From an uncultured delta proteobacterium (GTDB lineage Bacteria > Desulfobacterota > Desulfobulbia > Desulfobulbales > Desulfocapsaceae): a stretch of DNA of 64,000 bases. Position 1 is the first letter of the stretch; each line of letters starts with the position of its first letter. The notes below the pieces were generated by a model, which worked only from the letters and a program-made list of their open reading frames with translations, was not told the DNA's origin and made no database searches. The stretch is from NCBI GenBank assembly GCA_963759125.1, contig CAVWXN010000008.1, positions 156,556 through 220,555 of the forward strand, given 5' to 3'. The translations under genes and the position numbers were made by a program. Below, in pieces: positions 574 to 27,956 of this stretch.

Positions 574-1280
574 GGATTATCCTTTTTTCCAAATAATTAA
601 GGTTTTGGTTAACCATAAGAGCACCCCTCCCGAGACGCAAGAATCCTGGCCTGAAGAAGGTTAAAGCCAGTCAATTGAGCCAACGATCTTAGTTAATGAA
701 ATACAAACAATAGCAGTTTCTATAGTTAAATTACTTTTTGTTACCCATTGTCATTAAGGGGTACATGTCTAGCTTAGAAACCTAAGAGGTGGCAATCACC
801 ATTGAAACAGCCAGCAAAAAATTTAGAGGTAGAAAAAGAATAGCGGATACCATTTACTGGTGTGGATCAACAGTAAACAGGGGAAAGAGTACATCTGCTC
901 GCTCGAAAAAACAGATAATAAATCGTTTGAACAACTCAATGACGATGAACGAGCAAGGTGCACCGATGTTAATCAGATTGTCGGAACCGAGCGCTGGTAA
1001 AGTTACGGAGGAGTAATTGTAATGAAAACACTGCTTATAACTGGAACAATTCTAATAATTGGTATTTCCACCCCTGTTCTTGCTACCTGACAAGCTCAGC
1101 AGCATGCTGCTGCCGGCTGCTGAAGGATCATATGCCATGAGAAATCAAATTGCAGAACTTGACGCACACAACTCCGGGCAATTTGTGATCCAGGTAGAAT
1201 GGTCTGAGTTTTAATAACATTTAGCTAGTTCTATTTAGGCATATTCAGGTGTAATTTTCCCTATACTCATTTTCGTTTTT

Positions 1281-1310
1281 TTGACAAAACGCAAATTGTT
1301 TTTGTAAACT
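1281..1310 (+). promoter_or_regulatory. sigma-70-type promoter of riboswitch cassette 1 (TTGACA-N18-TAAACT)
   Basis: TTGACA at 1281-1286, an 18-nt spacer, TAAACT at 1305-1310. The identical hexamers and spacing recur upstream of the other two GEMM-I copies (4421-4450 and 11498-11527, minus strand). Confidence 0.6.
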
Positions 1311-1335
1311 TAGATAGCATACATAACAACTTCTT

Positions 1336-1412
1336 CGAAAGGGCAAACTTGGGGTGACCTGAGGGCGCAAAGCCACGGACCAGAACTTGCTGGCAGCCGG
1401 GTTGCCGAAAAG
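1336..1412 (+). promoter_or_regulatory. c-di-GMP-I (GEMM-I) riboswitch aptamer, copy 1
   Basis: RNA is CGAAAGGGCAAACUUGGGGUGACCUGAGGGCGCAAAGCCACGGACCAGAACUUGCUGGCAGCCGGGUUGCCGAAAAG. It matches the GEMM-I core as recalled from Vibrio cholerae Vc2: GGGCAAAC-hairpin with GNRA loop-GGGACGCAAAGCC-hairpin-GGGUUACCGA. The first hairpin stem covaries among the three copies. Confidence 0.9.
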
Positions 1413-1432
1413 AGGGGCTCAACCGTATTTTG

Positions 1433-1469
1433 CAACGCCCGTCTTCGGCTGAAGGATGGGCGTTTTTTT
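1433..1469 (+). terminator. intrinsic terminator (expression platform of riboswitch copy 1)
   Basis: AACGCCCGTCTTC-GGCT-GAAGGATGGGCGTT hairpin followed by a T7 run (1463-1469). It lies 20 nt after the aptamer and 130 nt before the ATG at 1599. Confidence 0.85.
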
Positions 1470-1598
1470 ATGAACATGGACATCTTAGCTTCTGTATTCA
1501 CGTCTGGTTCTTGTTCTGGCTTGCAAGCACGAGAAGAGTGCGTTGGCCTCGGTAACTAGCTTGATTTAAGATAAATATTTTCCCTCTTGGGTGAAAAA

Positions 1599-2012
1599 AT
1601 GAAGATGATTGCCCCAATAACATTTATTCTGATTGCAGTAATCGTAGGTAGTGGGCAAGCAGCTACTTATGGGGATACAGAGCAGGCCTTTCAAGACTGC
1701 CAACTTGCTTTAGAACTTGGCCGAGAGCTAACTGTGGATGAATCAATACGAGCTAACTCTTGTGTTAATTTCGTTATAGGAGCTTGGGATATGGGGGAGT
1801 ATTTATCTTGGAGGGATGTTTTTCTTGGGAATGACCCCCCTTTCTGCCCCCCTGATGAAGAAGTTGATATCACCCGACCCATCGTCGCATTTGTCAACTA
1901 TGTGGAAGAATATCCCGAAAAAATGGAACATCGTTTGGCGATGGTGCTGGAGTGGAGTTTCAAAAGGGCCTATCCGTGCACTGACGCCAACATCATCAAA
2001 CTAGCAAACTAA
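1599..2012 (+). CDS. small secreted protein, Rap1a/Tai4-like (T6SS amidase-immunity family fold) - tentative
   Basis: The ORF track starts at 1587 (TTG); ATG at 1599 or 1605 is more likely. N-terminal signal peptide is MKMIAPITFILIAVIVGSGQAA. The family pattern C..F.IG..D...(x)...FCPP.E.V....IV..V..Y.E.YPE.....LA.V.....F...YPC matches the Rap1a/Tai immunity-protein layout as I recall it. Confidence 0.65.
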   Translation: MKMIAPITFILIAVIVGSGQAATYGDTEQAFQDCQLALELGRELTVDESIRANSCVNFVIGAWDMGEYLSWRDVFLGNDPPFCPPDEEVDITRPIVAFVNYVEEYPEKMEHRLAMVLEWSFKRAYPCTDANIIKLAN

Positions 2013-2218
2013 AGATTCATGTTTGGATTAGATCAGGAAATTCAGGCGATTTCCAACTCAAAGATTTTCTGATCTTCTGCTAAACCTTCGATCAATTCCT
2101 TTGTCGCATGTACGGTGCCCACCTAATCTCAGGCCTGGAGTGTATTTTTGAATTCAAAAAAAATCAAAGCAGTTCATGTCTATTTACCCTATAAGAAGCC
2201 GGGCCTGAATCCAGCCCT

Positions 2219-2668
2219 CTAGTTTTGAGGTGGTCTGAACCTTAATTCCAGCTGGATAAACTCCTTTTTCATTTCAGCCGGCATGGCAGGTAATGGGCTG
2301 GAGTTTGAGATGCACTCCAGGGCGTAAAAATTGAACCGATCATTACCTGATGATTTCATAATCTCCTGAGCAATGATAGTGCCATCTCGGTCGATTTTGA
2401 GAGCGACTCGCAGAAAATCATCCGTTTTGACATCCAGATCTTCTGGAAAAAACCAATTGTTTTTTACCTGATCTATCACTTCGAAAACGTAACTCGACTC
2501 TATACCGTCCCGGGGGGAATCTAAACTCTGGCGTATTTCATTAACTTCTTTTTGGAGTTGTTCAAGCCGCCGCTCAAGTTCAATCTGTTTTTCATCATCA
2601 CTGTTCGCCGGGCTGGCTATCGCTGCAAAAATGACAATTGCTGAGATCACAAGCATATATTTTTTCAT
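2219..2668 (-). CDS. secreted TonB-C/TolA-C-like domain protein with coiled-coil linker
   Basis: Signal peptide is MKKYMLVISAIVIFAAIASPANS, followed by a coiled-coil (QIELERRLEQLQKEVNEIRQ). The C-terminal block NNWFFPEDL...RVALKIDRDGTIIAQEIMKSSGNDRFNFYALECISNSSPLPAMP fits the TonB_C/TolA_C pattern (W..P...v.i.l..dG.v..v.i..SSGn..fD..a..Ai....P.P..P). The RBS AAGGAAA lies upstream. Confidence 0.7.
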   Translation of the reverse strand: MKKYMLVISAIVIFAAIASPANSDDEKQIELERRLEQLQKEVNEIRQSLDSPRDGIESSYVFEVIDQVKNNWFFPEDLDVKTDDFLRVALKIDRDGTIIAQEIMKSSGNDRFNFYALECISNSSPLPAMPAEMKKEFIQLELRFRPPQN

Positions 2669-3033
2669 CGATTTTCCTTTATAGAATATTATCAGAGCAC
2701 CTTTTTATACTGCTTACCTTACCATGCCGTTGCGGGTGAGATATTTCAACTACAAAAGACATTTCAAACAGGCTGTTTCAGTTGTCCAGAAACTGATGAA
2801 GAACCACAGGGTCTGTACTCAATTAGACTGGCGATGCTTGAATATCCAATGGGTAATTTCAGGGAAAAATCGTGTGGTGCATGTCTTTGACATGAAAGAT
2901 CGCCAGATCAAACGTCTGAGGATTAGATATGGCATGGTCCGATACGTGAGCTTATTTATACTTATCAAGATCCATTGTAAAAAGAAAAACTGGTCATCAG
3001 TGCACTAAATTAACGGTTCAACTGGAGGCGATC

Positions 3034-3429
3034 ATGGAAATCAATCAAACCTACGAAATGAACCATACCGTAGACCTAAACGATCTCGCAAGTTCACTCA
3101 GCCCATCCCCCGATGATGAATTTCCGCCAGTTTTCGCCACCTCTCGCATGATTGCCTTCATGGAATTCTGTTCCGCACGATTCATGAATCCGCTATTGAA
3201 GGATGGCGAGTTGTCTGTTGGTGTTGGAATAGATATTAAGCACACGGTGCCGACACTCCCTGGTGAGGAAGTTATCCTCACATCCACCTATCTCGGGTGT
3301 GAAGGTAAACTTTTCCGTTTTAAGGTGTCAGTCTCTGATAAGCACGGAGTTGTAGGTGAAGGCGAACACACACGTGCCATTGTCAACACGGAGAAGTTGA
3401 TGAAGATTGCAGCAAAGCGGGCGATTTAA
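3034..3429 (+). CDS. hotdog-fold thioesterase (FlK/fluoroacetyl-CoA-thioesterase-like family)
   Basis: 131 aa with a GGAGG RBS. Sequence ...FPPVFATSRMIAFMEFCSARFMNPLL.DGELSVGVGIDIKHTVPTLPGEEV...GEGEHTRAIV is typical of this small thioesterase family. Confidence 0.75.
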   Translation: MEINQTYEMNHTVDLNDLASSLSPSPDDEFPPVFATSRMIAFMEFCSARFMNPLLKDGELSVGVGIDIKHTVPTLPGEEVILTSTYLGCEGKLFRFKVSVSDKHGVVGEGEHTRAIVNTEKLMKIAAKRAI

Positions 3430-3539
3430 GAACGGATGGGAGATAAAGCACGAATAAGTTTAAGACTGCTCCATAGAAAAACAGCTCGGCGGGGCGTTTT
3501 TGAAACAATGTGGATCGAGAGGATCAGAGATGTTTTAGT

Positions 3540-4170
3540 TTATCGTGACAGCTCTGCCAGAGTTATTTCATAAGTTCCACAAACTTCAGTAAGTATATTT
3601 ATGTGTCCTGTTTCTCTCCCTGTTCCCGCCCCTGGCTGGTTCATATCTTTTACAAAAACACCAAGAAATCTTGCCCTGGCATCGCTATCCTAGGTTACTT
3701 CTTCAATCACGGCCTTATAATCACGTGCAATTTGTTCCGTAATTGCAGCTTTGACAGCTATTAGAGTTGCCGTACAGTTGTCCGGAACATCTTCACAACT
3801 ATAGATCAACAGGTTGTCTCTCTGAGCCTCCGAAATATCCGGGATCATCCAGATTCAAATCGATATCTACCGTATAGGCATCTATGAGCTCACCCTCGCC
3901 TATTTTAAAATTAGAAACTCCAAATATGGCTTCACCGCCATATTGGATCCCTTCATTTTGCTCTACAGGTATCCAATTTGCTACAAGCGGTACCTCAAAT
4001 CCATCCATGTCGCCAATAGATCTGTGAGGAGGTGAAATTATGCCGTCTAAATAACATTCACCAGGGATGATTCCCCAAAATTCTTGTCGATCAGCATTTT
4101 CTGCCTGAATTATCACCTCGAACCAGCAAAACAGTCCAACAGCAAATAGCGCCGATACAAATTTCTTCAT
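3540..4170 (-). pseudogene. decayed paralog of the 10624-11259 secreted protein (frameshift near 3800-3806 plus in-frame TAG at 3690-3695); N-terminal 124 codons (3799-4170) remain open
   Basis: Residues MKKFVSALFAVGLF...IIPGECYLDGIISPPHRSIGDMDGFEVPLVANWIPVEQNEG...FKIGEGELIDAYTVDIDLNLDDPG align with the paralog. After a stop at 3799-3801, the homologous C-terminal half (YSCEDVPDNCTATLIAVKAAITEQIARDYKAVIEEVT*DSDARARFLGVFVKDMN...LTEVCGTYEITLAELSR*) continues in another frame and carries a TAG. The likely start is ATG at 4170 (RBS GAGGGA), not 4212. Confidence 0.75.
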
Positions 4171-4253
4171 AGTATCCCTCACGTTATGGAGTTGTTGAGC
4201 CGAACAATCCATTCTGCCTCAACAAACAACCCGGGCGCTTTTCGATTATGAAG

Positions 4254-4296
4254 AAAAAAACGCCCGTCTTCTCAGTCTCGGTCAAAGACGGGCGTT
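4254..4296 (-). terminator. intrinsic terminator (expression platform of riboswitch copy 2)
   Basis: Read on the minus strand: AACGCCCGUCUUUGACC-GAGA-CUGAGAAGACGGGCGUU followed by U7 (plus-strand A7 at 4254-4260). It lies 84 nt upstream of the ATG at 4170. Confidence 0.85.
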
Positions 4297-4320
4297 GCAT
4301 TGTGAGATGGCAAAACCCCT

Positions 4321-4397
4321 CTTTTCGGCAACCCTGCTACCAGACCATTCTGGCCAGTGGTTTTGCGTCCCTAGGTGACCCTAGGTTTGCCCTTTCG
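4321..4397 (-). promoter_or_regulatory. c-di-GMP-I (GEMM-I) riboswitch aptamer, copy 2
   Basis: Minus-strand RNA is CGAAAGGGCAAACCUAGGGUCACCUAGGGACGCAAAACCACUGGCCAGAAUGGUCUGGUAGCAGGGUUGCCGAAAAG, with the same core blocks as copy 1. The track ORF 4248-4430 overlapping it is rejected. Confidence 0.9.
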
Positions 4398-4420
4398 AAG
4401 AAGTTGTTTTGTTATCTTTT

Positions 4421-4450
4421 AGTTTATTGAAAAATTGAAATGTTTGTCAA
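4421..4450 (-). promoter_or_regulatory. sigma-70-type promoter of riboswitch cassette 2 (TTGACA-N18-TAAACT)
   Basis: Reverse complement gives TTGACA (4450-4445), an 18-nt spacer and TAAACT (4426-4421). This is identical to cassettes 1 and 3. Confidence 0.6.
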
Positions 4451-4761
4451 AAAAAAACTTAATTATTCTCGGATGATTGTTCTGGTGAAGAAAAAATAAC
4501 TCGACTATTTTACAAGGGTTTGGATGTTTTCTGATAACCATGCTGCCCAGGAAGTATTTTATTGACCCATTTCTTCAAGGAGGGTCACCCTGACTGGTCA
4601 AGCATATCGACATTTTTTATATTTCGAATTTCTCCGGGCGATTCAGTTGAAATTGTGTATTTTGCCTATTTAAACCCCTGAAGAAGCAGTGTAGATGGTG
4701 TATATGTTTATCGAAAAATTGAGATTTTGTGTAAGGAAGTGGGAAAGAAAACAGGAGATCC

Positions 4762-5133
4762 ATGATGCCTAAAAGAATGATTCTACCAATAGCCTTTATC
4801 ATCGTGACTCTCTTTTTCGTAATCAAAGGTTTCTTTGGCATGTTTCAGGATGAGCAAACGAAAGAAGAGCAACGTAAGGCTGAATTTGTCGAAAAAATCG
4901 AGGAAAAACGGGAGTACGATCTAAAGCTCCAGGGTTGTATCGAACAGCAGGACGAGCACCATGACTCACTCGAGGCCAAAGGTCAATTATACTCCATTGA
5001 AAATGGCAAAAAGGTTGACAACTCTTTCAAACTTCTCAGTGCCGAGTGCAAAATGATGATAATCCGCTCGGAGAAAGAATCGGATAATAAATCATCTGAG
5101 CAGAGAAAGAACACCACCGAGGAAAGCTCATAA
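4762..5133 (+). CDS. hypothetical membrane-anchored, charged/coiled-coil protein
   Basis: AGGAG RBS lies 5 nt upstream of the ATG. There is one N-terminal TM helix (ILPIAFIIVTLFFVIKGFFGMF), followed by a Lys/Glu-rich region. I recognise no family. Confidence 0.55.
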   Translation: MMPKRMILPIAFIIVTLFFVIKGFFGMFQDEQTKEEQRKAEFVEKIEEKREYDLKLQGCIEQQDEHHDSLEAKGQLYSIENGKKVDNSFKLLSAECKMMIIRSEKESDNKSSEQRKNTTEESS

Positions 5134-5163
5134 CAGCAAAAAATACTATCTGTTTGGTAATGA

Positions 5164-6456
5164 TTAATACCCCTTGTTTGCCAGTATTCTTTCAATATAT
5201 CGTGATTTTACCTGGCTGTTTGCCAGAATCTGCTTGACCGGAGGCAGCTTAAATACCACTCCAAGAAGTGCGGCCAGTGCTCGATGGCTGAAAAGCACCC
5301 GATTATCAAAAATCAGATGCTGAAGCTTTCCTCGTTCGATCGCCATAAGTACAACCCGGTGCGCACTGTTTACCGGGGTAATAACTTTTTCCTTGCGCGG
5401 GATCAGATGTATCGATTCTGTCGGACAGGAGCGGACACAGAGACCGCAGCCCAGGCAGATTTCTTGATCGAGTCGTGCGCTTCTCTTTTTCGGATTATGG
5501 GGGGCGTTTGCAGATACAAGGGATAAGGCCTCGACTGGACAAATATCGACGCATTTTCCACATCCTTTACAGGACTCGGTTGCCAGAGAAGGGATATAAT
5601 TCGTGGTATGGACCGGATGCAAATGGGCAAAGCGTTTGGCGGCAAGCAGCGCCTCACAGCAACAGCCGCAGCAATTACAAATAAAATTCACCCCCCTCAT
5701 GTTGTTTTCACCGAACTGCACCAAATTATTTTCATAGGCCTTCTGCAGCAATTCTCGCCCTTCCACGACATCTACTCGACGAGCGTGACCGTGGCGTATA
5801 AGTGAGTCTGCTGAAGTGTTAAAGGTCATGCAGATATCCATTGGTGCCTCACAGGCCTTATCTACATGCTGCATTTTGTGTCGGCAATAACAGAGGCTGA
5901 CACCCATCGGGTCAGCTGTTTCAATTACCTCACTTGCCCTTTCATAATCAAGTACAAGTAGAGACTGCTGATCGGGAAGTGCAGGTTCATGAACAAAGGT
6001 CCGACCGAGTTGTGTATCGCCCTTGGTAAAAAGTTCACGGATAAAGTCTTCTTCTTCATTCAGGTATTGGCAAAACAACTCACTCAGCACTTTCTGATCG
6101 ATGTCGTCCCGCAAACGCATAAGTGAAAATTCAAAAAATCCTGCCATTGGTGGTGGCAGAACATACTGGATCTCATCGTTTTGAACGATGTCTACAAGAA
6201 TGGCTCTAGAAGCCAGGGAGTCCAGAATTTTGTGCGTCTGACCTTCACCGATAGACCAGATCCGGCTCGCCTGTTTTGCGGTAAAAGGTTTTATCGGCAG
6301 CGCTGCAACCAGTTCAGCTTCCCGATCGGAAAAAAGAATTTTTAAGATTTTTTCAAGCAGAAGAGAGTCAGGTGCCCCCTGCGGAAAACGGTTTAGCCGG
6401 CTTGTAAGTAGATCGTGTGGTTGGTGATGAGAGTGATTGTTGAGGTGATGAGCCAC
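5164..6456 (-). CDS. 4Fe-4S dicluster domain protein with Cys-rich CNCCGCCCE motif and N-terminal wHTH-like region
   Basis: GTG start at 6456-6454 with RBS GGAGAAG. There are two ferredoxin motifs, CKGCGKCVDICP and CLGCGLCVRSCP, plus CYCRH...C...C and CNCCGCCCE clusters. The N-terminal segment AKQASRIWSIGEGQTHKILDSLASRAILV looks winged-helix-like. Confidence 0.8.
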   Translation of the reverse strand: MAHHLNNHSHHQPHDLLTSRLNRFPQGAPDSLLLEKILKILFSDREAELVAALPIKPFTAKQASRIWSIGEGQTHKILDSLASRAILVDIVQNDEIQYVLPPPMAGFFEFSLMRLRDDIDQKVLSELFCQYLNEEEDFIRELFTKGDTQLGRTFVHEPALPDQQSLLVLDYERASEVIETADPMGVSLCYCRHKMQHVDKACEAPMDICMTFNTSADSLIRHGHARRVDVVEGRELLQKAYENNLVQFGENNMRGVNFICNCCGCCCEALLAAKRFAHLHPVHTTNYIPSLATESCKGCGKCVDICPVEALSLVSANAPHNPKKRSARLDQEICLGCGLCVRSCPTESIHLIPRKEKVITPVNSAHRVVLMAIERGKLQHLIFDNRVLFSHRALAALLGVVFKLPPVKQILANSQVKSRYIERILANKGY

Positions 6457-6597
6457 TGGTCACTTCTCCATAACTTTGTCGTTCGCATTCATTTGATCCA
6501 AGCGAGACTCGCGCCGATTTCTCCGGCTGGCCCCGGTAATTTCGGAGTAGGAAATTACCGGCTCAACAGAGGAATCGTGCAGATAATCGGCTAAGTG

Positions 6598-8610
6598 CTA
6601 AACTTTTTCGAATTGAATCAGAGTGGTCCCGGTTTCCACGGCATCACCTGGGTTGACGTGTACAGATTCGACAATCGCATCGGTTGGCGCGGAAACCGCA
6701 CTTTCCATTTTCATTGATTCGAGAATGATCAGTTCCTGGCCTCGATAGACCCGCTCTCCAGCTTTAACTTTTACATCCACGACCATACCGGGCATAGGGC
6801 AATCAAGCAGATTTTCAATCTTTTTCTTGGAGGGCCGCGGCATAAATCTCGCTACTTCCCATTCCCGAGGATTGTAAATCTCGAAATTCCTGCAAACACC
6901 ACAGTAGGCCGCCTCGATAAAATTGCCGTTGTATTTCAGTCGAAAATAGCTGCTCTCTTCGTTGATGGTGAGTTTGAGTCTGCGACGATAGAATTCCGGT
7001 GGTGGAGTGACGACCTTGTAGGCTACCCCGTTGACTTCGATCAGCCATTGATGTTCACCGCCAGCCCTTTCAATCTGCACCTTGAACACGTCATCATCGC
7101 ATTTGGCCACATAGAAAAAGGCTGTCTCATCGGTTCCGGAAACGCCGACCCGGGATTTGAGAGGCAGCAGCGCATTCCTCATCAGATTTTCGCGCAGGTG
7201 GTAGACAAGGGTAGTGGCAATTGCCATGGCGTCCAGAGTTTCGGGGGACGGTGGCAGCCCCTCGTCCTGGGCCGGCAGATAGGTCGGGATGAAGGCGGTG
7301 GTGACGTTACCGCTGATAAATACCGGATGGGACAATACCTGGTTGGCAAAATCGACGTTGGTGGAAATTCCCTCGATATGATATCCGTTGAGGGCCTGAA
7401 TCATCAGCTTGCGAGCCTCTTCGCGATTTTGCCCCCAGGTGATAACTTTGGCGAGCATCGGGTCGTAATAGACACTGACGGTGCTTCCGGCATCGACCCC
7501 CGAGTCCACCCGGATATGCGAACCACGCGGCTCTGCGTAACGGGTGATAAGGCCGACTGAGGGTACAAAGCCGCGCAGGGCATCTTCGGCGCAGACGCGC
7601 ACCTCAATGGCCCAGCCTTTGAGCGCGATGTCCTGCTGGCTGAACGGCAACGGCTCGCCGACCGCAACCCGCAGCTGCAGTTCCACCAGATCAACTGAGT
7701 TGACCAGTTCGGTCACCGGGTGTTCGACCTGCAGCCTGGTATTCATTTCCAGAAAGTAGAAGGAACTGTCCTCAGCTAAAATAAATTCAACCGTGCCGGC
7801 ATTGACGTAGCCTGCACGCCTCGCCAGATCGCAGGCAAGGCTGCCCATTTTGTCACGCAGAGCAGGAGTCAGGGCACAGGAAGGCGATTCCTCGATTATT
7901 TTCTGGTAGCGACGCTGTATGGAGCATTCCCGTTCACCGAGATGAACGATGTTGCCGTGCTGGTCGGCAATGAGCTGGATTTCGATGTGTCGCGGTTTGG
8001 TAAGGTAGCGCTCGACAAAAATGCGGTCGTCACCGAACGATTTTCTGGTTTCCTGCTGGCAGAGTTGCAGCGAGGAACTCAGGTCCTGCTCTTGTTCGAC
8101 CACGCGCATGCCCTTGCCACCTCCACCCGCAGCGGGTTTGAGCAGGACGGGATAACCTACCAGTTGGGCAATGTCACGGGCCTGCTCGAAATCCAGCACC
8201 GGTTCGCTGTGACCGGGCACCGTTGGCACATCGGCCTCGATGGCCAGCTTTTTGGCGGCAATCTTGTCACCCATGGTGCTGATCACCTCGGCTGGCGGAC
8301 CGATAAAGACCAAGCCTGCAGCTCTAACGTTTTCGGCAAATTCGGCATTCTCGGACAGAAACCCGTATCCCGGGTGGATCGCCTGGCAGCCAGTGCCAAG
8401 CGCTGCCTCGATAATGGCGTCCATGCGTAGATACGAATCAGCCGGTCGAGCACCCCCGACGAGCACGGCCTCGTCCGCCAGGCGCACATGCTGTGAACGG
8501 AAATCGGGTTCGGAGTAAATGGCAACGGTTGAAACCCCGAGGGCCTGGCAGCTGCGAATTATCCGAAGGGCGATTTCACCACGGTTGGCAATGAGCACTT
8601 TGCTGAACAT
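6598..8610 (-). CDS. acyl-CoA (acetyl/propionyl-CoA) carboxylase alpha subunit: biotin carboxylase fused to biotin-carboxyl-carrier domain
   Basis: 670 aa. The N-terminus KVLIANRGEIALRIIRSCQALG and the ATP-grasp motifs (GGGGKGMR, EMNTRLQVEHPVTE) are present. The C-terminal biotinylation motif is ESMKMES. Confidence 0.92.
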   Translation of the reverse strand: MFSKVLIANRGEIALRIIRSCQALGVSTVAIYSEPDFRSQHVRLADEAVLVGGARPADSYLRMDAIIEAALGTGCQAIHPGYGFLSENAEFAENVRAAGLVFIGPPAEVISTMGDKIAAKKLAIEADVPTVPGHSEPVLDFEQARDIAQLVGYPVLLKPAAGGGGKGMRVVEQEQDLSSSLQLCQQETRKSFGDDRIFVERYLTKPRHIEIQLIADQHGNIVHLGERECSIQRRYQKIIEESPSCALTPALRDKMGSLACDLARRAGYVNAGTVEFILAEDSSFYFLEMNTRLQVEHPVTELVNSVDLVELQLRVAVGEPLPFSQQDIALKGWAIEVRVCAEDALRGFVPSVGLITRYAEPRGSHIRVDSGVDAGSTVSVYYDPMLAKVITWGQNREEARKLMIQALNGYHIEGISTNVDFANQVLSHPVFISGNVTTAFIPTYLPAQDEGLPPSPETLDAMAIATTLVYHLRENLMRNALLPLKSRVGVSGTDETAFFYVAKCDDDVFKVQIERAGGEHQWLIEVNGVAYKVVTPPPEFYRRRLKLTINEESSYFRLKYNGNFIEAAYCGVCRNFEIYNPREWEVARFMPRPSKKKIENLLDCPMPGMVVDVKVKAGERVYRGQELIILESMKMESAVSAPTDAIVESVHVNPGDAVETGTTLIQFEKV

Positions 8611-8618
8611 TATCTACC

Positions 8619-10172
8619 TCACAGGGGGATATTTCCGTGTTTGCGGTCGGGACGACTCGGCTTCTTACTCTCCAGAACCTGCAGGGTACGGATCAGTCTG
8701 TGTCTGGTCGTGTGCGGAAAGATGACATCGTCGATATACCCCCTCTTGGCGGCAAGAAACGGATTCATGAAACGGTTACGATAGGCTTCCATTTTCTCAT
8801 TGAGCAGGGCATCGGGGTCATCTGACTGGTCTATGTCTCGGCGATAGATAACCTCGCTTGCCCCGCGTGCGCCCATGACCGCAATCTCAGCGGTCGGCCA
8901 GGCGTAGTTGATGTCACAATGAATATGTTTGGAATTCATCACCACGTAAGCTCCGCCATAGGCCTTGCGCACGATGACGGTGATGCGTGGTACCGTAGCC
9001 TCGGAAAAGGCATAGAGCAGCTTTGCCCCGTGGCGGATGATACCGCCATGCTCCTGCTCTGGCCCAGGCATAAATCCAGGCACGTCAACCAGGCAGACGA
9101 GAGGAATATTGAAAGCGTCGCAGAATCGGACGAAACGGGCTGCTTTGAAGGAGGCGTTGTTGTCGAGAGCTCCGGCCAGCACCGCTGGCTGATTCGCTAC
9201 AAGACCTATGGTCTGGCCCCCGAGACGACCGAAACCGCAGATGATATTGTTGGCGAACAATGCTCCGATCTCAAGAAACTCGGCCCCGTCAAGAATCGAA
9301 TAGATCAGCACGTTCATGTCGTAACTCTGGTTGGGATTGGGTGGCACCAGGTAATCCAGCGTCGGGTCTGTGCGTTCAGGCGGATCGTTGAGATCGAGTA
9401 GCGGTGCCTTTTGTTTGCTGTTCGATGGCAGGTAGTTGATGAGCTGTCGCACGCCGCGCAGGCAAAGGATATCGTTTGGATAGATACACTGGGCCACACC
9501 GCTCTCGGTGGCGTGGACCTCAGCGCCTCCCAGTTCCTCGGAGCTGATATCCTTGTGAATGACCGTCTTGACCACATTGGGTCCGGTTACGAACATATGC
9601 GAAGTCTGTTCGACCATAAAAACAAAGTCGGTCATCGACGGACTGTAGACTGCTCCGCCGGCGCATGGCCCCATGATGCAGGAAATCTGAGGGATTACCC
9701 CGCTGGCGAATACATTTCTATGAAAAATCTCGCCGTAAGCCGCAAGCGCGTCGACGCCCTCCTGGATCCTCGCCCCTCCGGAATCATTGATGCCGATAAT
9801 GGGGGACCCCACCTGCAAGGCAAGATCCATAACTTTGCAAATCTTTTGGGAATGGCCCTCACCCAGGGAGCCGCCAACCACCGTGAAGTCCTGACTGAAG
9901 ACAAAAACCTCACGGCCATTGATGGTCCCGTGACCAGTAATAACTCCGTCGCCAGGGTGGCTCTTGTCTCCGCCAACCATTTCTCCCCGACCTACCTTTA
10001 GACTGTCGATTTCCTCGAATGACCCTTCATCGAGAAGCAGCTGCAGTCTCTCACGGGCGGTGAGCTTGCCGCGCTGGTGCTGCAGTTCGATGCGCTGCTC
10101 GCCACCGCCTGAAAATGCATGTTTTCTGAGCTCGTAAAGTTCGAGAATATTGCTGTGCTTGATATCTACCAT
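8619..10172 (-). CDS. acyl-CoA carboxylase beta subunit / carboxyltransferase (propionyl-CoA carboxylase beta or methylmalonyl-CoA carboxyltransferase 12S type)
   Basis: 517 aa. Sequence ...[31 protein letters not shown]...[14 protein letters not shown]...[13 protein letters not shown] is the classic carboxyl-transferase domain. The gene sits 8 nt upstream of the alpha subunit and has a strong GAGGAGG RBS. Confidence 0.92.
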
Positions 10173-10623
10173 AGCACCCCCTCCTCGATGGAATGCGGTT
10201 CTTTCCGGATTGTTGAGAAACGACCTGTAGAGCGTTGCGCATTAATGCTGGTTGGCCGGGCGGCCAGTCCCAGTCGATTCCCCAGATAGCAATCTTATAA
10301 CTCAAAAATGGTCGGGAGGGAAGATGGTAGGTCTACCTTACTGTGACAAGCTTACCGCTTCGTTGCTCTGACCGGCCCCTGGATACGAGGCCATAGAAAA
10401 TGCCGCCAGGTTTGCTTAGGGTGGAATTTTTCAGGTAGTCAGATTAGATCAGCAGAAAAGTGCCTTTTCTGTAAATTGACCTCATACCTGTTAACCTCTC
10501 GTGAACCCGAGACTCGCTCTACCGAAAATAAACAGGAATAACTCAATGCCAACTTAATAATAAAAACATCAACATCCTTTCGGAGCGAATCTGAAACGTT
10601 AAGGATTAAAGGGGTTCGATTAT

Positions 10624-11259
10624 TTAATAAATCGTGATTGCCTGAGCCATAGTTATTTCATTTGTACCACAAACTTCAGTGTGTAAATAAATCTGTCCCC
10701 TTTGATCTTCCGTTTTCATCCCGACAGGGTTCATACCTTTTATAAAAACGCCAAGAAAATTTGCAATGGTATTGTTCTCGTAAATTACGTCTTCAACCTC
10801 AGTTTCATAGTCGCGTGCAATCTGCTCCGTTATGGCCGCTTTGACAGTTGCAAGAGTCGCGGTACAACTCCCAGAAACATTTTTACATCTATAAATAAAA
10901 TGGTTGTGCCTCTCTTCTTCCGAAAGACCAGGATCATCTCGATTCAAGTGAACGTCTACGATATGGGCCTCGACAAGCTCACCTTCACCTATTTTAAAAT
11001 TATAGACTCCAAATTTAGCATCACCTCGAAATTGGGTTCCTTCATTCAGCTCTACCGGATTCCAGATAGCCACAAGTGGAACTTCAAATCCATCCATATC
11101 GTCGACAGATTTATATGGTGGGGAAATGATCCCGTCCAGATAGCATTCACCAGGAATAATTTCCCATAATTCTGAGTGGTCAGGATTATCTGCCTGAATA
11201 ATTACTACCAGCCCGAAATAGAGTCCAGCCGCGCATAGTGCCGATACCAATTTCTTCAT
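10624..11259 (-). CDS. secreted protein of unknown function (intact paralog of 3540-4170), c-di-GMP-riboswitch controlled
   Basis: The likely start is ATG at 11259 (RBS GGAGGAG), inside track ORF 10624-11313. Signal peptide is MKKLVSALCAAGLYFGLVVIIQA. The N-domain is IIPGECYLDGIISPPYKSVDDMDGFEVPLVAIWNPVELNEG...FKIGEGELVEAHIVDVHL. The C-domain contains Cys pairs (CKNVSGSC, EVCG). Confidence 0.8.
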   Translation of the reverse strand: MKKLVSALCAAGLYFGLVVIIQADNPDHSELWEIIPGECYLDGIISPPYKSVDDMDGFEVPLVAIWNPVELNEGTQFRGDAKFGVYNFKIGEGELVEAHIVDVHLNRDDPGLSEEERHNHFIYRCKNVSGSCTATLATVKAAITEQIARDYETEVEDVIYENNTIANFLGVFIKGMNPVGMKTEDQRGQIYLHTEVCGTNEITMAQAITIY

Positions 11260-11333
11260 AATAACTCCTCCCATTTTGGGTTGATAGGCCAGAAAATTTA
11301 TTCTGCCCATCAAACACCTGAGCGTTTTAAATT

Positions 11334-11375
11334 ATGAAGAAGAAACGCCCATCTTCTTAGCCGAAGGTGGGCGTT
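11334..11375 (-). terminator. intrinsic terminator (expression platform of riboswitch copy 3; interrupted U-tract)
   Basis: Minus-strand hairpin ACGCCCACCUUC-GGCU-AAGAAGAUGGGCGU is followed by UUCUUCUUC, a weaker U-run than in copies 1 and 2. It lies 84 nt upstream of the ATG at 11259. Confidence 0.65.
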
Positions 11376-11398
11376 GCACTATAGACGGCAAAACCCCT

Positions 11399-11475
11399 CT
11401 TTTCGGCAGCCCGGCTGCCAGCTAGTGCTGGCCCGTGGCTTTACGTCCCTAGGTCGCCCCAGGTTTGCCTTTTCG
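11399..11475 (-). promoter_or_regulatory. c-di-GMP-I (GEMM-I) riboswitch aptamer, copy 3 (variant core)
   Basis: Minus-strand RNA is CGAAAAGGCAAACCUGGGGCGACCUAGGGACGUAAAGCCACGGGCCAGCACUAGCUGGCAGCCGGGCUGCCGAAAAG. The architecture is the same as in the other copies. The core shows two substitutions relative to copies 1 and 2: AGGGCAAAC becomes AAGGCAAAC, and ACGCAAAG becomes ACGUAAAG. Confidence 0.85.
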
Positions 11476-11497
11476 TAGAAGTTGTTCAGTTAACTAC

Positions 11498-11527
11498 AGT
11501 TTATTTTAAAAAAGACATATTTGTCAA
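11498..11527 (-). promoter_or_regulatory. sigma-70-type promoter of riboswitch cassette 3 (TTGACA-N18-TAAACT)
   Basis: Reverse complement gives TTGACA (11527-11522), an 18-nt spacer and TAAACT (11503-11498). Confidence 0.6.
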
Positions 11528-24200: not shown

Positions 24201-24992
24201 ATGGTGGATTTAGAAAAAGAGATCAGTCTTGATCGGCGCCAGTTTATAAAGAACGTGCTGGGCGGTACCATCGCCGGTTCCCTGCTTCTGGTCATCCCGC
24301 TCAGCGCCAGGGAGTTGGAACAGATACCAGGAATGAAAGACGAGGACAGCATCTTCACCGAGAAAAACTTTGTCTTCGTCGTTGATATCACCGCCTGCAT
24401 CGGCTGTGGGTCCTGCTGCATCGCCGATAAAGCCGAATACAAGGTTCCCGACGGCTACTACAGAACCTGGGTCGAGCGCTACATCATCGACGACCACGAC
24501 GGTGTTCATGTGGATTCACCAGACGGAGGGCTCGGCGGTTACACTAAGCCTCGCGAGGGACTGCCACATCCGATCAGGGACACCTTTTTTGTCCCCAAAC
24601 TCTGCAATATGTGTGAAAAGCCAAGTTGCGTGCAAGTCTGTCCGGTAGGCGCCACCTATCAGACCAAGGACGGTTTTGTGCTGGTCGATAAGACGCGCTG
24701 TGTCGGCTGTTCCTATTGTGTGCAGGCCTGTCCCTATTCGATTCGTTTCATCAACCCGATTAGCCATACGGCAGAAAAATGCACCTGGTGCTACCACCGT
24801 GTCCGCCAGGGTCTGCTTCCCGCTTGCGTGGCCGTGTGCCCAACCGGCGCTCGCAAGTTCGGCGATCTCGATGATCCGCAATCAGAGGTGGCCCAGCTCC
24901 TGCGCCAGCCCCATGTAATCTCGGTACTGAAACCCGATATGGGTAACGAGCCGGCCCTTCATTACCTGGGCCTTAGAAGGGAGGTCGTCTAA
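24201..24992 (+). CDS. Tat-exported 4x[4Fe-4S] iron-sulfur subunit, NrfC/PsrB/DmsB type
   Basis: 263 aa. The twin-arginine motif is DRRQFIKNVLGG. There are four Cys clusters (CIGCGSCC, CNMCEKPSCVQVCP, CVGCSYCVQACP, CTWCYHRV...CVAVCP). Confidence 0.9.
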   Translation: MVDLEKEISLDRRQFIKNVLGGTIAGSLLLVIPLSARELEQIPGMKDEDSIFTEKNFVFVVDITACIGCGSCCIADKAEYKVPDGYYRTWVERYIIDDHDGVHVDSPDGGLGGYTKPREGLPHPIRDTFFVPKLCNMCEKPSCVQVCPVGATYQTKDGFVLVDKTRCVGCSYCVQACPYSIRFINPISHTAEKCTWCYHRVRQGLLPACVAVCPTGARKFGDLDDPQSEVAQLLRQPHVISVLKPDMGNEPALHYLGLRREVV

Positions 24993-26212
24993 TGAATGGT
25001 GCTATCCAACATGGCGATACCGTCTCGTCTCTGACCAACTACGTATTTCCCAACGATTTTCACGTACACTGGTCGCTGATGATCGTGCTTTACCCCTATA
25101 TCACCGGCATTGTCGCGGGAGCATTCATCGTTTCATCGCTCTATCATGTATTCGGCATCAAGGCCTTGAGACCCATCTCCCGCTATTCCCTGATATTCGC
25201 CCTGGCCTTTCTGGCCTGCGCCACCTGGCCGCTGCTCCTTCACCTCGGCCACCCGGAGCGCTCATACTCGATGTTTCTGACCCCCAACCCTAGTTCTGCA
25301 ATGGCCGGGTTCGGTTTTATCTACACGGCCTATCTCATCCTGCTTTTACACGAGATCCTGTTCATCTACCGGCCGACGATGGTCGGCTTGTGGCACGAAT
25401 CTTCGGGCTTGAAGAGAAGGTTCTATGCCTTTCTCGCTTTTTTCAACGACAATCTTTCCAAAGAAGCACTGACCCTCGATAACCGCATCATCAGCTTTCT
25501 CGCCGGGCTCGGCATACCGATGGCCTGTGTCCTGCACGGCTATGTCGGTTTCATCTTCGGAGGCGTTAAGGCCAACCCATTATGGGCCACTCCACTCATG
25601 CCGGTTATCTTCCTGCTCTCAGCCTGCGTATCCGGGATTTCCGGTATCATTCTCACCTACGTCCTGATCATGAAGTTCAAGGGCAAACCAGTTGATATGG
25701 ACTGCATACGCACTTCAATCAAGTTCCTCTGGGGCTTTTTCATCCTCGATTTCGTCTTCGAGATGCTCGAGGTGTTCAGTCACGCCTACATGGCGACACA
25801 CCACTGGCATGTCCTGGAAAACCTCTATTGGGGACCGCTCTATACCACTTACTGGGTCCTCCAGGTAAGAATCTTTTCAGTCATACCTTTCATTCTGCTC
25901 GGCATCCTCTGTCTGTTCAAACTCAAAGACAGGGTTGTACTGTTTTTTGCCCCGCTCGTATCGCTGATGATCCTTATCCAAGTGCTGCTGATGCGCTGGA
26001 ACGTGGTTATCGGCGGGCAACTGATGTCCAACTCAACCAGGGGACAGGTGTCCTTTGTGCCCCATTGGGAAGGCCGTGAAGGGATAATCGCAGCGCTCGT
26101 GGTGATGACCGCCCCCTGGGTCATTTTATTTATACTCAGTAAAATTTTTCCCCTGTGGCTCGACGACCAGCCGGCCGACCAGCAAGTGTCGGAGGCTTCA
26201 GCCCCAACTTGA
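24992..26212 (+). CDS. NrfD/PsrC-family integral membrane quinol-interacting subunit
   Basis: 406 aa. The start overlaps the stop of the FeS subunit (TAATG). It has about 10 predicted TM helices and follows an NrfC-like gene, as in the NrfCD/PsrBC/ActBC/DsrOP modules. Confidence 0.85.
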   Translation: MNGAIQHGDTVSSLTNYVFPNDFHVHWSLMIVLYPYITGIVAGAFIVSSLYHVFGIKALRPISRYSLIFALAFLACATWPLLLHLGHPERSYSMFLTPNPSSAMAGFGFIYTAYLILLLHEILFIYRPTMVGLWHESSGLKRRFYAFLAFFNDNLSKEALTLDNRIISFLAGLGIPMACVLHGYVGFIFGGVKANPLWATPLMPVIFLLSACVSGISGIILTYVLIMKFKGKPVDMDCIRTSIKFLWGFFILDFVFEMLEVFSHAYMATHHWHVLENLYWGPLYTTYWVLQVRIFSVIPFILLGILCLFKLKDRVVLFFAPLVSLMILIQVLLMRWNVVIGGQLMSNSTRGQVSFVPHWEGREGIIAALVVMTAPWVILFILSKIFPLWLDDQPADQQVSEASAPT

Positions 26213-26369
26213 TAAGAGTAACGAGGAGGATGGGACAACCATTCTATATAAGAGTAAGGGCGCCCTGCAGATGTATTAAAGACAAGGAGGTGATGACGTA
26301 CTAAAAGATCTTGGGCTGCCAATTTGTTTTATCACCCAAAAGAATTTAAACAATTGACTGGAGGAGAAG

Positions 26370-27956
26370 ATGCAATCTTTAGGTAGAGTGCTTTTCTTAA
26401 CTCTGCTAGCGTTCTTCATTGCCACCCCCCTCTATGCCGCCACCAAGGTATCGATGGATGTGAGCAACGAAAGAAACGTGCAGATGAATGTAAAATGCGT
26501 GAATTGCCATCTGAAAGAGAACAATTCACTGGTCCAGCAGTGGCGTCATTCCCCACATGCTGCTGGAAAAGACGGCCAGGTTGGCTGCTATAACTGCCAT
26601 GCGGCGGAAGAGGGAGAAATCACCGGCTACGAACACGAGGGTGCGTTTATCAAAACCGTACTGAGCCCCAAAGATTGCGGCTACTGTCACGAGCGTGAAA
26701 CAAAGGAGCAGCAGGCTTCTCATCATGCCGCTGCCGGACAGATCATGGCCTCTCTGGACAACGTGCTGGGCGAGGTAATCTGCTCGCTTGAGGACAAGGC
26801 CGATGCTGCAAACGGCTGTTGGCAATGTCATGGCTCCATTCTGACGGTTCTTAAAGACGACAGCGGAAAGCCATTGAAGAGGGCCTCCGGAGCCGTCATG
26901 TTCGATCCGATGACCTATCCCAACTCAGGAATGGGTCGCCTCAACCCGGACGGGTATGCGGGAACCTGTAATGCCTGCCACTCCAAGCACAGTTTCCGTG
27001 CCTCGATGGCACGCCAGCCAGAAAACTGCGGTAAGTGCCATCTTGGTCCTGATCATCCGCAGATAGAAGTTTACAACGAATCCAAGCATGGCATAACCTA
27101 TTACTCGGCAATGAAAGACGCTGGTTTCAACGGCATGAACATTATGAAGGCTGGCCAATGGGTCCTCGGCAAAGACTACTACTATGCCCCGACCTGCTCG
27201 ACCTGCCATATGGGCGCCTTCGTGAAACCCAACGGCGGAGAAGCACAAAACACCCATAATGTCGGCGACCGCCTCTCCTGGACCCTGCGTCCCCAGGTTT
27301 CGGTCAAGCTGAACCGGGCGGTATTTGCCGATGGAACCGAGAAGGACATCCCCGGTGATATTCCGCCGCAGCCTGGCTCTATGATCAAGTACAATGAATT
27401 CAAACAGGTCGACGGTACGTGGAAGCAGGTACCGGTTGAGAAAGAAGCCGTCGAGGTCATCAGCTGGGAACAGCGCCGGGAGAACATGAAAGGTGTATGC
27501 AATCAGTGTCACGGCAAACAGAAGATCGAGAATTTCTACGATCAGTTCGATGCCCTGGTGGTTACCTACAACGAAAAATTCGCCAAACCCGCCAAAATGC
27601 TTTACGGGATGGCTTCAGAAGATGGACTTGTGTTCGGTTCGACCTTCCACACCGAGCTTGGCTGGCACTGGTGGGAACTCTGGCATCATGAAGGACGACG
27701 GGCAAGGCACGGTGCCTCTATGGGTGGTCCCGACTACACCCATTGGCACGGTATGTACGATGTCGCCCACAACTTCTACTTCAAGTTCCTACCCGAGTTG
27801 ATGCATCTGGCTGAGAAAAAAGGTATGTCCGAGAAGTACGAAAAGGTTGTTGGAGAGATGCTTGCCAAGCCTGAACATGCCTGGTACAAGGAAGGCTTTG
27901 ACGCAGATGTGATGAAAGCAATCAAAGCCGAACAGCAGGATCGTTACAAGCAGTAA
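26370..27956 (+). CDS. periplasmic octaheme c-type cytochrome, hydroxylamine-oxidoreductase (HAO)-like family (tentative subfamily)
   Basis: 528 aa with a Sec signal peptide (LTLLAFFIATPLYAA). There are eight CxxCH motifs (CVNCH, CYNCH, CGYCH, CWQCH, CNACH, CGKCH, CSTCH, CNQCH). The heme spacing and the C-terminal block WWELWHHEGRRARHGASMGGPDYTHWHG match my recollection of HAO/epsilon-Hao-type proteins. Confidence 0.8.
   Translation: MQSLGRVLFLTLLAFFIATPLYAATKVSMDVSNERNVQMNVKCVNCHLKENNSLVQQWRHSPHAAGKDGQVGCYNCHAAEEGEITGYEHEGAFIKTVLSPKDCGYCHERETKEQQASHHAAAGQIMASLDNVLGEVICSLEDKADAANGCWQCHGSILTVLKDDSGKPLKRASGAVMFDPMTYPNSGMGRLNPDGYAGTCNACHSKHSFRASMARQPENCGKCHLGPDHPQIEVYNESKHGITYYSAMKDAGFNGMNIMKAGQWVLGKDYYYAPTCSTCHMGAFVKPNGGEAQNTHNVGDRLSWTLRPQVSVKLNRAVFADGTEKDIPGDIPPQPGSMIKYNEFKQVDGTWKQVPVEKEAVEVISWEQRRENMKGVCNQCHGKQKIENFYDQFDALVVTYNEKFAKPAKMLYGMASEDGLVFGSTFHTELGWHWWELWHHEGRRARHGASMGGPDYTHWHGMYDVAHNFYFKFLPELMHLAEKKGMSEKYEKVVGEMLAKPEHAWYKEGFDADVMKAIKAEQQDRYKQ

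Follow-up and report, generated by a model that had tools for sequence, protein, structure and literature searches.

The 64,000-nucleotide (nt) stretch of contig CAVWXN010000008.1 analyzed herein at full length (hereafter, the window), from an uncultured delta proteobacterium of the family Desulfocapsaceae, a sulfate reducer akin to Desulfofustis, carries three leaders designated c1, c2, and c3, each of which would constitute a self-contained unit of a sigma-70-type promoter, a class I cyclic di-GMP (c-di-GMP) aptamer, and an intrinsic terminator. Judged from their sequences, these cassettes are almost certainly riboswitches of the GEMM-I class, and c-di-GMP is very probably the ligand. With a probability of roughly 65%, as estimated from folding models, they would act as transcriptional OFF switches of the type of Cd1 from Clostridioides difficile, so that the genes behind them are shut off as c-di-GMP rises. 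The core reading of a preliminary description of this DNA, namely leaders made of a promoter, a GEMM-I-type aptamer, and a terminator, was thus backed by covariation and by linkage in other genomes. The leaders are, on the sequence evidence, real and well-conserved new examples of the known c-di-GMP-I class with a Cd1-like platform, and the known working of the class is unchanged by them; what is new is the members themselves, a lineage-specific regulon comprising an orphan secreted family and a Rap1a/Tai-family protein, and a mislabel in Rfam.

Three leaders with a conserved aptamer and terminator

The features of the leaders and of the genes that follow them are listed below with their window positions and strands (bp, base pairs; aa, amino acids).

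1281-1310 (+): c1 predicted promoter, TTGACA (1281-1286)-N18-TAAACT (1305-1310), consensus scan
1330-1418 (+): c1 aptamer including the P1 strands (Rfam core 1333-1410), RF03167, 60.2 bits, E 1e-11; P2 loop GUGA
1404-1418 (+): c1 switching strand GCCGAAAAGAGGGGC, the P1 3' side, which may instead pair with the terminator 5' arm (predicted antiterminator)
1434-1471 (+): c1 intrinsic terminator, 12-bp stem 1434-1464, U7 tract 1465-1471
1599-2012 (+): intact gene for a 137-aa protein of the Rap1a/Tai family (PF18602) with, by eye, a signal-peptide-like N-terminus
4421-4450 (-): c2 predicted promoter, TTGACA-N18-TAAACT, consensus scan
4315-4403 (-): c2 aptamer including the P1 strands (Rfam core 4400-4323), RF03167, 63.2 bits; P2 loop GUCA
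4329-4315 (-): c2 switching strand
4252-4296 (-): c2 intrinsic terminator, 13-bp stem 4296-4284/4271-4259, 12-nt loop, U7 tract 4258-4252
3540-4170 (-): pseudogene, paralogous to the 211-aa gene and disrupted by a single frameshift near 3845 and by a TAG in frame near 3690 (three-frame translation)
11498-11527 (-): c3 predicted promoter, TTGACA-N18-TAAACT, consensus scan
11393-11481 (-): c3 aptamer including the P1 strands (Rfam core 11478-11401), RF03167, 64.4 bits; P2 loop GCGA
11407-11393 (-): c3 switching strand
11335-11375 (-): c3 intrinsic terminator, stem 11375-11363/11356-11344, interrupted U-tract UUUCUUCUUC
10624-11259 (-): intact gene for a 211-aa predicted secreted protein of an orphan family, with a signal peptide ending in IQA and four invariant Cys residues

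At the gathering threshold, an Rfam scan of the whole window detected exactly three aptamers (expect values, E, of 1e-11 to 6e-13), at the coordinates and on the strands that the preliminary description had assigned to them by eye, and a permissive scan (E<=0.1) revealed no extra copy in the 64 kb. The top model for all three copies was RF03167 (c-di-GMP-I-GGC; gathering score, 59 bits), which belongs to the same clan, CL00126, as RF01051. The covariance-model check that had been proposed with RF01051 was therefore borne out as to the three above-threshold clan matches and not as to the top family. The first hairpins, read earlier as CUUGGG-GUGA-CCUGAG, CCUAGG-GUCA-CCUAGG, and CCUGGG-GCGA-CCUAGG, were exact in the window sequence; their GNRA caps, claimed for each copy, were found in c1 (GUGA) and c3 (GCGA) but not in c2 (GUCA). 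The P2 loop was GNRA in all other 13 leaders, including the c2 orthologue L007 (GUGA). When the 15-mer TGCCGAAAAGAGGGG was used in a metagenome-wide scan, only L059 was a real cassette among the matches listed, the others being due to chance.

The identical and identically spaced promoters described earlier were recovered by the consensus scan, which found TTGACA-N18-TAAACT at all three sites, and the orthologous leaders had the same promoter hexamers at the same distance from the aptamer. A GC-rich hairpin followed by a U-tract was likewise located in each cassette, at 1434-1464 (+), 4296-4259 (-), and 11375-11344 (-), in agreement with the earlier account. Between the -35 box and the T-tract, identity among the cassettes was 77-80%; past the T-tract, c1 was only 41-46% identical to c2 and c3, whereas c2 and c3 were still 67% identical up to their start codons.

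In an alignment of 14 leaders that lie upstream of homologous genes and were drawn from metagenome-assembled genomes (MAGs) and metagenomes, 94.5% of the cells of the aptamer plus terminator were paired, as against 34-54% for slid-partner controls. Ten pairs were changed on both sides, a number reached by 3 of 500 shuffles, and the covariation score was 0.185 versus 0.140 (0/500 shuffles). Helix P2 was 100% paired with 4/6 hairpin pairs changed on both sides, and helix P3 was 98.8% paired with 4/12 pairs so changed. P1, which consists of CUUCUU/AAGAGG and a CG/CG adjoining the junction and is prolonged in most leaders by a CAAAAC/GUUUUG extension, was 93-99% paired and invariant. In the terminator, pair 133-164 (alignment numbering) was changed on both sides (G-C, A-U, G-U), and pair 137-160 took three standard forms (G-U, A-U, G-C). 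The compensatory changes in P2 and P3 across the 14 leaders well supported the earlier argument that a hairpin which differs between copies yet stays paired reflects RNA structure.

The linkage between leader and gene was conserved as well. In the family of the 211-aa protein, the same riboswitch was situated 145-220 nt upstream and on the gene's strand in 8/8 homologue loci with enough upstream DNA, and across homologous genes in other genomes it occurred on the same strand at 145-270 nt. The relative P0091, only 32% identical, also had it upstream, and another distant relative had none within 253 nt of upstream sequence. For homologues of the Rap1a/Tai-family protein behind c1, the riboswitch was present upstream in 2/3 other testable loci (L011/L012 and L015/L016) and absent at L013/L014, L017 being truncated. 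The named relatives were Desulfofustis, Desulfocapsaceae, and Desulfobulbaceae MAGs. With these observations, the c-di-GMP regulon of Desulfocapsaceae, on which little genetics exists, gains a clean conserved riboswitch-gene pair.

Predicted switch logic

The terminator began approximately 15-25 nt past the end of P1, the aptamer and the terminator were non-overlapping, and every full-length structure of minimum free energy (MFE) held the two together. The segment GCCGAAAAGAGGGG, which covers the region of C92 (numbering of Vc2, the Vibrio cholerae prototype), the P1 3' strand, and the adjacent GCC, was found to be complementary to the terminator 5' arm CGCCC-N-UCUUCGGC, whose consensus is CGCCC(G/A)(U/C)CUUCGGC. 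For transcripts ending just before the terminator 3' arm, the MFE structure was this antiterminator in 14/14 leaders, and it was favored over the P1 state with an unpaired terminator 5' arm by 3.5-12.7 kcal/mol (c1, -9.5; c2, -4.5; c3, -9.8 kcal/mol). The A:T duplexes had energies of -13 to -20 kcal/mol with z-values of -0.9 to -4.0 relative to shuffled strands; that of c1 amounted to -19.8 kcal/mol, and 3/500 shuffles were equally good. Antiterminator pairs were maintained at 94% versus 44-55% when slid. The folding check for an antiterminator suggested in the preliminary description thus gave a positive answer in the form of a duplex between the P1 3' strand and the terminator 5' arm.

These folds suggest the following mechanism. 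When the ligand is absent, the antiterminator would out-compete P1 for as long as the polymerase has not reached the terminator 3' arm, and its formation would allow read-through into the gene. Binding of c-di-GMP would lock P1 and the junction and leave the terminator 5' arm free, upon which the terminator would form and transcription would stop. Low c-di-GMP would in this way lead to expression of the predicted periplasmic protein of the Rap1a/Tai family (c1) and of the orphan disulfide-bonded secreted protein (c3). In the Cd1 OFF switch, the aptamer and the terminator coexist and together make up the full-length minimum, and a transient A:T-strand antiterminator relaxes to the terminator (PMC9262584). 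Since the same combination of a coexisting aptamer and terminator with a transient antiterminator appeared in the present leaders, an OFF logic is predicted for them; the preliminary description had considered the choice between ON and OFF not derivable by eye, and folding now provides a prediction. In contrast to Cd1, which lies upstream of flagellar genes, the leaders in the window have an unrelated platform sequence, belong to another phylum, and precede genes for small secreted proteins rather than a flagellar operon, and their logic is a predicted one.

Several points weigh against this reading. The antiterminator showed no double changes, both of its strands being nearly invariant, and thus it rests on conserved complementarity and energy models. 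The A:T duplex of the c2-type leaders was only about 1.3-1.6 standard deviations better than shuffled strands, and the U-tract of the c3 terminator is interrupted. The full-length minimum consisted of P1 plus the terminator even without ligand, and the switch must therefore be kinetic; moreover, P1 is long (up to 12 bp with the extension), and the models leave room for the view that it may form in the ligand-free state. Finally, the best covariance model was that of the GGC variant, the RF01051 scores being masked by clan competition.

With regard to c2 alone, the chances appear evenly balanced that it is a relic, that is, a riboswitch which stands before a dead gene and is itself starting to decay. 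The gene behind it is interrupted by a frameshift and a nonsense codon while the syntenic orthologue is intact, the P2 loop of c2, GUCA (4350-4353), departs from the GNRA of the other 13 leaders including L007, and its antiterminator advantage of -4.5 kcal/mol is the weakest of the three window copies. However, c2 retains a score of 63.2 bits and pairing in every helix, no damage is seen in its promoter hexamers, terminator, or U7 tract, and in L007, whose gene is intact, the antiterminator is favored by just as little (-3.5 kcal/mol). The frameshift, moreover, could be a sequencing error, the assembly being metagenome-derived.

An opposite logic, in which the same aptamers bind the same ligand and c-di-GMP favors read-through as in Geobacter pilM and Bacillus Bc2, is unlikely on the present evidence. 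It finds precedent in the many ON switches among the GEMM-I/Ib riboswitches of Deltaproteobacteria (PMC9262584). The extended P1 is stable alone, the ligand might act elsewhere than on P1, and the linker GCCGUCU resembles the terminator 5' arm by eye and could compete for the 3' arm. Nevertheless, ON switches of this class need a mutually exclusive aptamer and terminator, as in pilM (PMC9262584), whereas those in the present leaders are separated by ~15-25 nt and coexist in the full-length MFE structures. In addition, the pairing of the linker with the 3' arm is shorter and bulged compared with the perfect 12-13-bp terminator, and the sole strong alternative pairing was that of the P1 3' strand with the terminator 5' arm, as the Cd1-type OFF switch would employ it.

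Ligand pocket and class assignment

Vc2 numbering was transferred by equating model pair 11-36 with G21-C46, by which model positions 10, 37, and 75 correspond to G20, A47, and C92. According to the model alignment, the G20 equivalents are G at 1342 (c1), 4391 (c2), and 11469 (c3), the A47 equivalents are A at 1369 (c1), 4364 (c2), and 11442 (c3), and the C92 equivalents are C at 1405 (c1), 4328 (c2), and 11406 (c3). In the class I aptamer, G20 makes a Hoogsteen contact with one ligand guanine, C92 forms a Watson-Crick pair with the other guanine, and A47 touches the ligand backbone (PMC5888326). Because all three residues are canonical in all copies, the pocket is most probably the canonical c-di-GMP pocket. 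An A at position 20 is the change found in variants responsive to c-AMP-GMP (PMC9481103). This signature of the c-AMP-GMP (GEMM-Ib) group was not seen in c1, c2, or c3, all of which have G, and judging by this residue G20 excludes the cyclic GMP-AMP (cGAMP) subclass for the window copies, an alternative that the preliminary description had raised.

It is accordingly very unlikely that the aptamers represent an altered-specificity subclass, either c-di-GMP-I-GGC or c-AMP-GMP/GEMM-Ib, sensing something other than c-di-GMP. RF03167 did outscore the other clan members for the three copies and for every related leader, and the A20 of the orthologous Rap1a leader L011 indicates that specificity switching occurs in the lineage. 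However, the consensus of RF03167 shows a conserved G at position 37 of the model, i.e., the A47 site, and this defining G was seen in no window copy or aligned leader: the residue was A in 14/14 aligned leaders and in three further contigs (L139-141). Position 20, moreover, is G in each of the three window copies, and matches to other families of this clan were located at these spots too, with 3 hidden matches above their own gathering scores and 6 at E<=0.1. What the copies share with the RF03167 variant are the peripheral features AAAGGCAAACC, GCCACGG, and AGCCGGGCUGCCGAA, and the "GGC" label is, as far as these sequence comparisons go, a by-product of this peripheral similarity. The letters GGC presumably name positions 20/47/92 in the usage of Weinberg and colleagues of 2017, the consensus G itself being observed. 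As a caution for annotation, clan competition in Rfam leads automated pipelines to mis-name this Desulfocapsaceae subfamily "c-di-GMP-I-GGC".

Among the 14 aligned leaders, A20 was found only in the external leader L011, where the leader of the Rap1a homologue P0065 (3670-4005; also L012) reads GAAAGAGCAAAC. Geobacter GEMM-I riboswitches that sense c-AMP-GMP, reportedly described by Kellenberger in 2015, have the same scaffold; the window copies have G20, whereas L011 has the diagnostic A20. The near-identical G20 (window) and A20 (L011) leaders before orthologous genes constitute a natural matched pair in which specificity for c-di-GMP as against cGAMP could be studied. In the genome of L011, a 765-aa ATPase with MshEN and T2SSE domains is encoded 54 nt past the Rap1a-like gene.

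Compared with the prototype c-di-GMP-I riboswitch (GEMM-I; RF01051, CL00126) Vc2, the leaders have in common the three-helix junction, the GGCAAAC and GGGACGCAAAGCC blocks, the G20/A47/C92 contacts, the GNRA-capped P2 in c1 and c3, and the 5'-leader site upstream of envelope or secreted proteins. They differ in scoring best on the sister family RF03167, in the extension of P1 to ~12 bp, and in that ligand binding is predicted only; P3 is short and appears to lack a tetraloop receptor of the 11-nt type, no dedicated receptor analysis of P3 having been made.

That the conserved blocks are coding, with the open reading frames (ORFs) 1310-1501 (-) and 4248-4430 (+) as real small genes and the RNA likeness incidental, can be dismissed as having a negligible chance: the two ORFs do exist in the window, but both are antisense to covariance-model matches of E ~1e-12, the stem substitutions are compensatory, stops break every antisense frame in c3, L003, L005, L007, and L008 (in L007, all three), and, being unconserved in the orthologous leaders, the ORFs are artefacts, as had been claimed for them before.

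Downstream genes, history of the copies, and surroundings

The leaders had been described as preceding proteins with Sec signals, which agreed with the present results in that 1599-2012 and 10624-11259 are intact and 3540-4170 is decayed by the frameshift and the TAG. The statement that these effectors have no assigned function remained valid for the 211-aa protein, which is without a family, but not for the product of 1599-2012, a PF18602 Rap1a/Tai protein. For the 211-aa protein, 53 homologues were collected, and an exhaustive profile search through 1.84 billion representative proteins yielded only 21 clusters. The protein had no significant Pfam, NCBIfam, or PADLOC match, the distant relatives from the same search had no significant Pfam match, and the family profile had none among PDB sequences. 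Two AlphaFold models had pLDDT values of 65.5 and 74.6, the latter model being a beta-rich sandwich plus two helices; in a Foldseek search of both against the PDB, the best E was 0.013 with a TM of ~0.3, and only generic Ig-like sandwiches were retrieved. The orphan family is thereby flagged as a predicted direct output of c-di-GMP that is worth characterizing.

Outside the window, P0052, P0053, and P0090 (251 aa) match the N-terminus of the 211-aa family with their first ~72 residues, and the remainder of P0052 and P0053 is an OmpA-family domain (PF00691), so that these are apparent chimeras. Downstream of P0091, part of a group II intron domain was matched at 1443-1522 of L141, though at 30 bits and thus under the threshold (RF02005).

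In the leaders of the orphan family, two further elements were found beyond the terminator.

11327-11337 with 11253-11263 (-): c3 pairing of the U-tract tail with the AUG region
~4245-4255 with ~4161-4171 (-): the corresponding c2 pairing
11281-11316 (-): c3 second conserved hairpin, between terminator and Shine-Dalgarno (GAUGGG/CCUAUC)
4191-4230 (-): c2 second conserved hairpin (GUUGAG/CUCAAC)

Immediately after the U-tract come 10-11 nt (UUCUUCAUAAU) that match the start-codon region (AUUAUGAAGAA) exactly in reverse complement; most leaders of the 211-aa family preserve the pairing, which was also present in the full-length MFE structure. Two pairs of the second hairpin, which is located between these two stretches, were changed on both sides among 10 leaders. 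The accessibility of the AUG in the antiterminated state was increased in c2, c3, L003, and L009 and not in L001 and L005-L008. A second, translational layer may be imagined here, in which transcripts escaping termination with the terminator formed would have their AUG sequestered while antiterminated transcripts could have it freed. Such dual control of transcription and translation by one c-di-GMP aptamer is decidedly unlikely; were it true, the riboswitch and gene concerned would form an ancient pair, still linked at 32% protein identity.

The history of the copies was clarified by comparison with an uncultured Desulfofustis MAG, to which the window has 85-92% nucleotide identity. One segment of this MAG contains a Fer4 protein, a 122-aa ORF, a leader with its gene, and an FlK thioesterase in the same order as in the window, and a separate one contains a leader with its gene followed by a carboxyltransferase, again as in the window. 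As both paralogues thus stand in the same synteny in the MAG, c2 and c3 go back to an old gene-plus-leader duplication, and since the MAG equivalent of 3540-4170 is an intact 213-aa ORF, the c2 gene of the window appears to have died recently. Meanwhile, window positions 698-2222, comprising the c1 leader and the Rap1a gene, are swapped for an unrelated 411 nt in the MAG, and an imperfect direct repeat of 17 nt (639-655 and 2193-2209) flanks this ~1.5-kb segment. By this alignment, the c1 plus Rap1a unit is an insertion/deletion relative to the MAG. The earlier proposal that the whole cassette had been duplicated and inverted is consequently too simple: c2 and c3 are gene-plus-leader paralogues, and the c1 unit is an insertion/deletion. 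The leader of L010, which precedes a homologue of the 211-aa gene, resembles c1 more than c2 or c3, so that an exchange of leaders between the two families of genes has taken place.

The product of 1599-2012 matched PF18602 with 34.3 bits (cutoff, 27.7; E 3.4e-8), its residues 32-127 aligning with profile positions 7-90 of 90 (84/90 positions). All of its 28 close homologues were PF18602 members, and the named ones came from Desulfofustis MAGs. Rap1a/Tai proteins are type VI secretion system immunity proteins of Serratia against Ssp1. The PF18602 match is accompanied here by a signal-peptide-like N-terminus, and an immunity function is not implied by the family match; a phmmer search gave no match of the product to solved Rap1a sequences. 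As regards linkage to a cognate amidase effector of a type VI system, the adjacent gene that was scanned is TonB_C-like and not an effector (one gene was scanned, the small ORFs at 789-1214 lying outside the scan). Elsewhere, the Rap1a homologues have unrelated gene neighborhoods, and the c1 unit therefore behaves as an accessory gene cassette. Segment 698-2222 also holds a 22-codon ORF (1022-1090) resembling an orphaned signal peptide (MKTLLITGTILIIGISTPVLAT). A 21-nt inverted repeat with 81% complementarity, formed by 1323-1343 in the c1 P1 5' strand and 1850-1870 in the Rap1a coding region, is probably due to chance purine/pyrimidine complementarity.

Clustering of such aptamers has a precedent in Desulfobacca acetoxidans, in which three c-di-GMP-I, one c-AMP-GMP, and three adenosylcobalamin riboswitches lie within 7 kb (PMC9481103). 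Both cases concern a sulfate-reducing deltaproteobacterium in which a few kb hold several c-di-GMP-I aptamers that are much alike; whereas those of D. acetoxidans form tandem logic gates, the ones described herein are singlets, each with its own promoter, terminator, and gene. No GGDEF, EAL, PilZ, or other c-di-GMP gene was found among the 20 largest other ORFs of the window. The region 14227-63175 is ordinary chromosome, which encodes an Ada-like methyltransferase, AmtB, an M32 peptidase, a sulfatase, a LUD/CCG protein, Pta-AckA, NrfD with a multihaem cytochrome (24992-27956), TRAP transporter components, DnaE, a XerD-like integrase, IspA, and Dxs.

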